This document shows positions 1,483-2,553 of a stretch of 7,641 bases of DNA, in pieces. Under the pieces are notes generated by a model. That model made no database searches, had not been told where the DNA came from, and worked only from the letters and a program-made list of their open reading frames with translations. The translations under genes and the position numbers were made by a program. Origin of the DNA: Escherichia coli (lineage in GTDB: Bacteria; Pseudomonadota; Gammaproteobacteria; Enterobacterales; Enterobacteriaceae); NCBI RefSeq assembly GCF_003334255.1, contig NZ_QOWU01000095.1. One strand, 5' to 3'. The stretch's first letter is position 1; each line of letters opens with the position of its first letter.

Positions 1483-2553
1483 TTACCCCCTGAAGCCCGG
1501 CGGAATTTCGTTATCCGGTTCAGAAATATGATTCACACAACGCTGGTTGTTCGTGCCGCTTACCGGGAGCAGCCAGGGGTTTTCAAAATTCCGGTCCGGT
1601 CCAAAAAACGTCGTCGCTCGCTGAACAAATTCCGTTCCCGTTTTCCCGGTAGCCGCAAGGTATCTTGCGTAACGCCTCACGCCATCCAGCATGGCCTCTG
1701 GTGGCACCCCCTCGCGTAATCTGGCTTTCCAGGCACTGAAAGCGGATTTCTTCGGGTTTGCCCCGGCACGCAACGGGTATTCCCGCCAGACCTGTTCGAA
1801 CACATCAGGATAATCCACTCGTCCCACAGGCTGCCCGGTGTTTTCCGGGACTACCCGATCGGCTTCCCGCTGAATGGCGGAATCGGCTTCAGGCTGCTGA
1901 AGTTGGTGTGATTGCTCCTGCCTTGCGGTCATCACCTGCTGCACAGCGCCCGAATCGGCTTTCAGCGCATACGCTGAATCGGCTTCCGGTGTCGTGCCTG
2001 CGGGCTGGCCAGGAGTGACGGTCTGAACATCCCCTGCCTGGTTCGTGGCGTTTTTTACGCCATGGACCATAGTGTTTTGATCTTCTTGATCTGTATCTTT
2101 ATCTGTATCTTTATCTGTCGTGACTCGTCGTGACATGTGCGTGACATTTCGTGACTCGCCGTGACAATCGCCATTTTGTTCCCGCTTTCTTTCCCTCTCT
2201 CGCTGCGCCCTCTTGCGCTCTGCCGGAGATTTTGCGGTTTGCGAAATATTGCCGTTGTCCTCTTTCAGCACCTGGCGTTTTTCCCATCCAGTGATTAAAT
2301 CACCATCAAGTACCCGCCCCTGCATCGTCTGCAAAATTGAATCAATTACCTCTTCTGTCACGTCGAGCGCACTTGCCAAATCTTCTGTCGTGACATCAAT
2401 GTGACCTCGCGTGACATTTCGTGACGCGCTCACCAGGAGGTGGATATACACTGCCATCACTGTTGCAATTGGCTGCCCTGACACCCTGGCAATTGTTCGC
2501 CACTTAGGGTCATTTGGCATGTCATGCCATAATCTGAGCCAGGCGTTAGCCAT
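1483..2553 (-). CDS. Replication initiator-like protein (O-gene position), about 356 aa: N-terminal putative DNA-binding domain, Q/A/T/E-rich linker, conserved-looking C-terminal domain
   Basis: Large ORF directly downstream of the cro-like and cII-like genes. It contains two arrays of 10-11 bp CGTGAC direct repeats, like iterons inside lambda O. ATG at 2553 follows AAGAGGTGA; the ORF track starts 2 codons earlier at GTG 2559. Family not assigned (no search). Confidence 0.7.
   Translation of the reverse strand: MANAWLRLWHDMPNDPKWRTIARVSGQPIATVMAVYIHLLVSASRNVTRGHIDVTTEDLASALDVTEEVIDSILQTMQGRVLDGDLITGWEKRQVLKEDNGNISQTAKSPAERKRAQRERERKREQNGDCHGESRNVTHMSRRVTTDKDTDKDTDQEDQNTMVHGVKNATNQAGDVQTVTPGQPAGTTPEADSAYALKADSGAVQQVMTARQEQSHQLQQPEADSAIQREADRVVPENTGQPVGRVDYPDVFEQVWREYPLRAGANPKKSAFSAWKARLREGVPPEAMLDGVRRYARYLAATGKTGTEFVQRATTFFGPDRNFENPWLLPVSGTNNQRCVNHISEPDNEIPPGFRG
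2119..2165. repeat. Iteron array A: five direct CGTGAC repeats with 10-11 bp periodicity, flanked upstream by tandem ATCTGTATCTTT repeats in a roughly 68% A+T stretch (2061..2118)
   Basis: Read directly: CGTGAC at 2119, 2129, 2140, 2150 and 2160 (first four TCGTGAC/GCGTGAC, last CCGTGAC). ATCTGTATCTTT is duplicated at 2089..2112. Confidence 0.65.
2389..2425. repeat. Iteron array B: four direct repeats (CGTGAC at 2389, 2410, 2420; variant TGTGAC at 2400), plus one inverted copy GTCACG at 2357..2362
   Basis: Read directly. The 17-mer GCGTGACATTTCGTGAC is identical at 2409..2425 and in array A at 2139..2155. Confidence 0.6.

Follow-up and report, generated by a model that had tools for sequence, protein, structure and literature searches.

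The window analysed here, a stretch of 7,641 nucleotides from Escherichia coli (contig NZ_QOWU01000095.1, assembly GCF_003334255.1), is the early region of a mosaic lambdoid prophage, and the present work concerns the short direct repeats (iterons) inside its replication initiator gene, which probably belong to a phage replication origin. The gene encodes a protein of 358 amino acids (aa) when read from a GTG codon, or of 356 aa from the ATG at position 2553 that RefSeq takes as the start. Along its whole length, the 358-aa protein matched PHROG 3729 ('replication initiation protein'; E = 7e-257), and its gene occupies the position of lambda O, after a cro-like gene and a CII/YdaT-like gene. 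The annotation of identical copies varies between 'phage replisome organizer', 'DNA replication protein O', and 'Primosomal protein I'. Of 5426 complete E. coli genomes, 1646 contain at least 80% of a 1.3-kb query that covers the gene. Among isolated phages, vB_EcoS-640R1 and vB_EcoM-606R7 encode a protein 98-100% identical to it, labelled 'DNA replication protein O', and an identical N-terminal domain was found in phages Evi and Tritos, in products labelled 'Primosomal protein I' and 'replisome organiser'. None of the records of initiator-bearing phages or copies that were inspected carries an origin annotation, and an Rfam scan of the window matched only the DicF RNA and nothing in the origin region. 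The features are collected in Table 1.

Table 1. Features of the E. coli window, with two homologous loci given for comparison in the last line.
Feature	Position	Strand	Remarks
Initiator gene	1483..2559	-	358 aa from GTG; open reading frame (ORF) and PHROG 3729 match
DnaT-like C-terminal tail	1483..1557	-	last 24 residues
Palindrome, 13-bp stem	2039..2069		just beyond the A+T tract
(GATAMA)n tract	2075..2118	-	A+T-rich, coding strand purine-rich; encodes DKDTDKDTD; presumed unwinding element
Array A, five GTCACG iterons	2119..2165	-	10-11 bp apart; encodes disordered linker; presumed core array of the origin
N-terminal winged-helix-like domain	2275..2544	-	aa ~4-93; presumed iteron reader
Single inverted iteron	2357..2362	+ (GTCACG)	encodes D-V-T, start of the presumed recognition helix
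Array B, four GTCAC(G/A) iterons	2389..2425	-	10-11 bp apart; encodes the end of helix 29-45 and the loop aa 46-55
DUF977/Ren-like gene	1071-1442	-	
YdaT/CII-like gene	2625-3050	-	
cro/DicC-like gene	3034-3279	-	
pR-like promoter candidate	3305..3334	-	consensus match only; cro-like, YdaT/CII-like and initiator genes downstream
LexA/cI-like repressor gene	3368-4006	+	
DicF antisense RNA	5174-5225	+	Rfam RF00039, 76.7 bits
97-aa ORF	5295-5588	+	downstream of DicF
Long ORF	begins near 5870	+	downstream of DicF
Relatives with mostly non-coding iterons	L089 2950-3115; L091 1185-1310		

The iteron unit reads GTCAC(G) on the coding (minus) strand of the initiator gene, that is, CGTGAC on the plus strand. 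CGTGAC occurs 11 times in the window against 2.8 +/- 1.6 expected, and none of 200 shuffles reached 11. An earlier note on this DNA, made from the sequence alone, had described two arrays. Motif counting confirmed the five CGTGAC copies of array A, which start on the plus strand at 2119, 2129, 2140, 2150, and 2160 (spacing 10, 11, 10, and 10 bp). For array B, the four sites and their regular spacing (11, 10, and 10 bp) were found as described, but only three are exact CGTGAC copies (2389, 2410, and 2420), the fourth being a TGTGAC at 2400-2405 that retains the GTGAC core. The single inverted copy and the perfect duplication of a 17-mer between the arrays (GCGTGACATTTCGTGAC, at 2139-2155 and 2409-2425) were also recovered, and TCTGTCGTGAC is likewise duplicated, its copies lying 270 bp apart. 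The cores are 6-7 bp long and asymmetric, and successive cores start every 10-11 bp. Array B and the inverted copy are located ~230 bp upstream of array A and its neighbouring A+T tract, within the region encoding the DNA-binding domain. No second origin-like cluster was found within the window by motif count or tandem-repeat scan. One further GTCAC, at 2015-2019, is probably there by chance, since it was kept in just 14 of 80 E. coli copies. A sigma-70-like match (GTGACA-16-GACAAT, 9 of 12 consensus positions) was observed inside array A at 2141-2168 on the plus strand, antisense to the gene, because the iteron GTGACA resembles the -35 hexamer TTGACA.

We then considered the repeats as coding sequence. 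The hexamer is translated in all three frames, as V-T, S-R, or x-H; the earlier note had spoken of VT/TR-rich segments, and no 'TR' is encoded. When the protein was held fixed and its codons were resampled synonymously, the gene contained 2.1 +/- 1.3 GTCAC, compared to the 10 observed, and none of 20,000 resamplings reached 10. Codon usage was compared among five GTCAC-type genes, namely the window gene, a second E. coli variant, one gene from a Pseudomonas phage, and two from metagenomic contigs (GC content at third codon positions, 0.52 to 0.70). Conserved residues whose third base falls in a core used a single codon in 10 of 10 cases, as against 7 of 43 conserved residues outside the cores (Fisher p = 1e-6). 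Among 52 distinct CGAACGC-type genes, which form a sister clade with a related iteron, the share of the major codon was 0.77-0.98 at six iteron codons and had a median of 0.50 elsewhere (p = 4e-5). A first scan of IMG/VR returned near-identical E. coli copies (~99% identical), of which 76 of 80 retained all nine iterons and four had lost one; these copies are uninformative for covariation, and diversity was obtained from a second scan with a distant query. Because the repeats are read in three frames, were never equalled in number by synonymous resampling, and have invariant core codons, the comparison of sequences indicates that they are under selection as DNA rather than as peptide.

The A+T-enriched tract of tandem repeats that the earlier note had placed beside array A was equally clear. 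The GC content is 35% at 2060-2119 versus ~54% for the initiator gene, and Tandem Repeats Finder reported a 12-nt unit, TCTTTATCTGTA, repeated 2.9 times at 2084-2118. The stretch at 2075-2115 ranks second among the least stable 40-bp stretches of the window and lies in the middle of a long gene; the other stretches of low stability mostly fall between genes or at gene ends. Irrespective of the iteron, a AGATAAAGATACAGATA tract comes immediately after array A in 54 distinct homologous loci. These tracts consist of (C/T)AGATAAAGATACAGATAAAGA-like hexamer repeats, with an A+T content of 64% versus 45% for the locus and 70% purines on the coding strand. Their aspartate codons are always GAT and their threonine codons always ACA, GC-rich hosts included, and in several loci the ORF stops with a TAG where the GATA tract starts, so that the tract lies after the stop codon. 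These fixed codons, together with the ORFs that end at the start of the tract, argue that it is selected as DNA, and it is presumed to be a DNA unwinding element.

Just beyond the tract, the palindrome folds as single-stranded DNA with an energy of -10.9 kcal/mol (z = -4.8). It is kept in Shigella phage POCJ13 (L179, nt 424-455 of the gene), which has the C-terminal module alone in common with the window gene; the palindrome may thus be part of the origin or a mere property of the C-terminal module. On the plus strand it resembles a terminator. Many CGAACGC-type loci (L096-L162, for example L105-L117) carry a palindrome-like element, CCCCCC(A/T)(A/T)ACCCCCC…GGGGGG, after the GATA tract, and one locus (L002) has the CCCCCCTTACCCCCC part alone, followed by GAGGGGG.

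The earlier note had also proposed a comparison with the origin regions of related prophages. The same two-array layout, with the GATA tract, recurs in ~60 homologues on metagenomic viral contigs as well as in isolated phages of Pseudomonas, Aeromonas, and Ralstonia, and it persists down to 38% protein identity. Four related iteron units were found, GTCACG, CGAACGC, GTAACG, and GCAACGC, which have a common ACG core and are separated by one or two base differences. Within a gene a single unit is used throughout, the iteron changing in concert at all sites. In Pseudomonas phage phita81A, whose N-domain is 70% identical and whose C-domain is different, GTCAC copies lie at nt 129-160 and 388-418 of the gene, with an inverted copy at 193; Aeromonas phage pAEv1818 shows the GTCACG pattern seen in phita81A. 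An E. coli O22:H8 variant has six array-B copies, the two extra iterons forming a 7-aa insertion, TCHGVSL. In a survey of 65 diverse IMG/VR loci, ~60 contained three CGAACGC at nt ~131-152 and two to six at ~350-405, invariably 10-11 bp apart, while 2.5 kb of flanking DNA held 0-5 copies. GTAACG is present in both arrays of locus L087, and GCAACGC in both arrays of Ralstonia phage Firinga, the homologue at 38% identity.

The inverted copy follows the same rule, reading GTGAC in 6 of 6 GTCAC-type genes, GTTAC in the GTAAC-type gene, and GTTGC in Firinga. The corresponding D-V-T codons are GAC GTG ACA in the GTCAC type and GAC GTT ACA in the GTAAC type, a synonymous change at valine, and GAC GTT GCA in Firinga. 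In two loci, L089 and L091, the ORF ends after three iterons and is followed by a T-rich A+T tract and 4-9 further, non-coding iterons.

The initiator itself appears to be modular. Modelled with AlphaFold2 on an alignment of 41 sequences, aa 1-165 gave a predicted local distance difference test (pLDDT) value above 90 for the helices 16-25, 29-45, 56-63, and 67-77 and for a beta-hairpin, defining a folded domain at aa ~10-93, and a value below 50 at aa 131-148, a disordered linker. Array A and the A+T tract encode aa ~130-160, which are predicted to be disordered and lie between the N-domain and the C-terminal module. One type of N-domain and iteron is joined, in different loci, to differing C-domains and partners (a lambda-P-like gene, an IstB/DnaC-like gene, or a 609-aa protein), and DnaB genes adjoin initiator genes of the CGAACGC and GCAACGC types. 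Since the same pairs of N-domain and iteron occur with differing C-domains and loaders, the iteron tracks the N-domain across these sequences, as expected if the N-domain reads it.

Other arrangements of the N-domain were seen. Locus L094 (2001-3271) contains tandem N-domain genes, the first (111 aa) without iterons and the second (312 aa) with CGAACGC in both arrays. In L090 (399-935) and in the proteins P0068, P0075, P0086, P0089, P0092, and P0099, the N-domain is joined to an HNH endonuclease domain, which takes the place of a replication C-module; in L090, the one HNH-fusion locus that was read, array B is retained and the next genes encode DUF1376 and DnaB.

In the window, no loader gene is found next to the initiator gene. 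The last 24 residues of the protein, GTNNQRCVNHISEPDNEIPPGFRG, nearly match the C-terminus of host DnaT, …SEPDNHIPPGFRG. The similarity to DnaT is limited to these 24 residues (19.3 bits against a cutoff of 201; PDB 6aep, E = 0.003), and the search of the initiator returned no Pfam DnaT match and no DnaT C-terminal single-stranded DNA-binding domain (PF17948 / NF002770) above its cutoff. DnaT belongs to the PriA/PriB/DnaT preprimosome, through which DnaB comes to be loaded, and from this resemblance the tail may be a handle to the host helicase-loading machinery, a DnaT mimic reaching the host primosome. In the linker of the C-module, GAATCGGCTT occurs exactly three times (1880-1889, 1952-1961, and 1976-1985) and encodes EADSA, a marginal excess (6 of 200 shuffles); a PEADS motif recurs in POCJ13.

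This anatomy matches that of the proven origins of lambda and Shiga toxin (Stx) phages and of phage SPP1. We consider it probable, at about 80%, that the region 2039-2425 is the vegetative (theta-type) origin of the lambdoid prophage and lies inside the gene for the prophage's own initiator. The earlier note had put forward such an origin, and all the computational tests available support it. According to this model, a pR-like promoter would, after induction, transcribe the cro-like, YdaT-like, and initiator genes and run through the origin. The winged-helix-like N-terminal domain would bind the GTCACG iterons, and since these recur once per helical turn, the protomers would all lie along the same side of the helix and assemble cooperatively on array A into a complex that bends the DNA. 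The resulting strain would open the neighbouring (GATAMA)n tract, which is less stable than any other DNA in the gene, and the C-terminal module with its DnaT-like tail would bring host DnaB/DnaC. Array B and the inverted copy are probably extra sites for the initiator, which could stabilise or loop the complex or limit the transcription of its own gene.

Several observations weigh against an origin at this position. No DnaA box (TTATCCACA, at most one mismatch) was found in the window. The fold of the presumed iteron reader is weakly defined by comparison, Foldseek matches to winged-helix domains of the CRP/MarR type being weak, with none reaching E <= 1e-3. The Pfam family Phage_rep_org_N (PF09681) was aligned over model positions 1-119 of 121 but below threshold, with an i-E of 0.25 when the full protein was the query and 0.036 when only aa 1-165 were used; among the 41 family members, two matched it at E <= 1e-3. 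Array B is missing in L004, L089, L091, and L095, which means that a second array is not universal, and in L089 and L091 the orientation of the iterons relative to the A+T tract is opposite to that of the window. The homologue in Microcystis phage Mwe-JY25 has no obvious iterons. Many of the compared loci are related by descent, and the counts given above overstate the number of independent events. Finally, no description of these iterons or of such an origin was found in the open-access literature, which was covered for GTCACG iterons, for replisome-organizer genes of Gram-negative phages as sites of origins, and for the Eru typing of Stx phages. The paper on phage MD8 mentions repeats in an O-like gene, and this candidate was set aside, MD8 not being among the phages with this N-domain.

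The arrays might instead be regulatory operators through which the initiator, or another phage or host protein, controls the replication operon, with replication starting elsewhere. Array B and the inverted copy stand early in the gene, ~230 bp from the A+T tract, where a bound protein could block RNA polymerase, and the occurrence of array A without array B in some homologues suggests that the two arrays may have different jobs. However, array A is in every case adjoined by a conserved tract that melts easily, an arrangement shared with proven origins. In addition, the iteron follows the N-domain of the replication protein and not the neighbouring regulators, which vary between loci, and motif count and tandem-repeat scan showed no other origin-like cluster in the window. 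We thus regard this explanation as unlikely.

The repeats could also provide homology for recombination between N- and C-modules, marking a mosaic junction without any role in site-specific binding. It is directly after the GATA tract that the shared N-module gives way to the different C-modules, and the same tract is present in very different phages. Recombination at such a layout is known for lambdoid O genes, but at this tract it looks like a consequence of the layout, and homology for recombination would explain neither the 10-11 bp phasing, nor an array inside the N-domain, nor the concerted change of the iteron at three sites and the invariant synonymous positions. Its probability appears quite small.

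The centromere-like partition sites parC and tubC are clusters of ~11-bp repeats coated by a small DNA-binding protein (ParR in plasmid R1, TubR for tubC), and two clusters of 4-5 repeats with ~11-bp spacing do resemble the layout of parC. Such a function is very improbable here, the element being an integrating lambdoid prophage with no ParM, ParA, or TubZ gene in the window or in its 25-kb context, and with C-domains of replication type that are followed by helicases or loaders in its relatives. That the repeats are a by-product of the peptide SRNVT, found twice in the protein in the same frame and 90 codons apart, or arose by chance with no function in the DNA, is scarcely credible in view of the three reading frames, the 0 of 20,000 resamplings, the invariant third codon positions, and the non-coding arrays of homologues.

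A further reading concerns array B, within the preferred explanation of an origin inside the initiator gene. Array B and the inverted copy might encode the very residues that read the iteron. When the GTCACG and CGAACGC clades were compared, nearly all the positions of the N-domain fold that discriminate them were found to be encoded by iterons (aa 45-56 and 65-67), and aa 65-67 form the start of the presumed recognition helix. If these residues set the specificity, the binding site and its reader would be the same DNA, and gene conversion between the arrays would alter the site and the protein together, giving a built-in route to new origin specificities. The perfect 17-mer common to both arrays is in frame, which is consistent with gene conversion. 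We nevertheless hold this reading to be unlikely.

Compared to known systems, the layout is closest to the origins of lambda and Stx phages, which lie in the middle of gene O and combine iterons with an A+T tract. In the lambda origin, four repeats are bound by four O dimers. The Stx phages P27 and 933W have six-iteron origins in which two extra iterons add 13 aa to O, as the extra iterons of the E. coli O22:H8 variant add 7 aa. Like lambda ori, the arrangement in the window places the predicted origin inside the initiator gene at the junction of the N- and C-domains, with direct repeats and an adjacent A+T-rich tract, and the N-terminal part sets the origin while the C-terminal part sets the helicase partner. 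The earlier note had likened the whole to lambda ori within gene O, and the functional analogy stands. The kinship does not, in that Phage_rep_O (PF04492) was matched neither by the initiator nor by 41 relatives in Pfam, and no P gene follows the initiator. Lambda iterons are ~18-19 bp long with internal dyad symmetry, whereas those of the window have cores of 6-7 bp, one per helical turn, without dyad symmetry.

The oriL of SPP1, located in gene 38, is a proven origin where G38P binds direct repeats beside an A+T-rich unwinding element. Reading gene 38 directly, we found AAACGACA/AAAAGACAC units ~11 bp apart in the middle of the gene and, after them, A+T-rich tandem repeats of 9 bp, so that the anatomy is that of array A and the GATA tract. 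A further set of repeats bound by the SPP1 organizer, oriR, is separate from oriL and lies ~13 kb away rather than ~230 bp upstream in the same gene, and SPP1 encodes its own loader and helicase. Homology of the initiator to G38P was rejected, since hhalign with the 41-sequence profile gave a probability of 0.1 (E = 0.43). The replisome organizers of PF09681 resemble the initiator by the weak full-length match, and NCBI names some copies of the window type 'phage replisome organizer'; they belong to phages of Gram-positive bacteria, whereas the hosts of the present family are Proteobacteria and cyanobacteria. The Rac oriJ module was also discarded as a model, because K-12 Rac carries ydaU (DUF1376) and ydaV after ydaT, and the window has a different initiator and no ydaV.

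Two separate clusters of iterons are known from P1 (incC/incA) and P4 (ori/crr), and R1 parC has two sets of five 11-bp repeats. As in these plasmids and satellites, one protein would bind two separated clusters of short repeats, the usual role of the second cluster being looping or handcuffing, but their clusters are intergenic or flank a gene, whereas both of those in the window lie within the coding sequence of their presumed binder. A second array inside the gene was not found described for lambda or SPP1 in the open-access literature. We would therefore class the predicted origin as one that works like lambda ori and SPP1 oriL and belongs to neither family. Its apparent novelty is the upstream array B inside the region encoding the DNA-binding domain, the layout being otherwise classical.

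Elsewhere in the window, at the 3' end of the DUF977/Ren-like gene (1069-1086), we observed a perfect 7-nt tandem repeat, CTTCACT, present in 2.6 copies.

These results would provide a concrete and testable origin for a replication module carried by ~30% of complete E. coli genomes and by isolated phages of Escherichia, Aeromonas, Pseudomonas, and Ralstonia, in which the initiator gene is labelled 'hypothetical protein' or, loosely, 'protein O' or 'primosomal protein I'. In practice, they could improve the annotation of prophage origins and supply compatible or incompatible pairs of origin and initiator for vectors. The four iteron variants, one or two bases apart and associated with very similar N-domains, form a natural specificity series for studying the evolution of specificity between initiator and origin, and the way in which a coding sequence can hold a second code at the level of DNA. 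The DnaT-like tail, in turn, hints that some phages recruit the host helicase via the replication-restart machinery, which may be a new mechanism.

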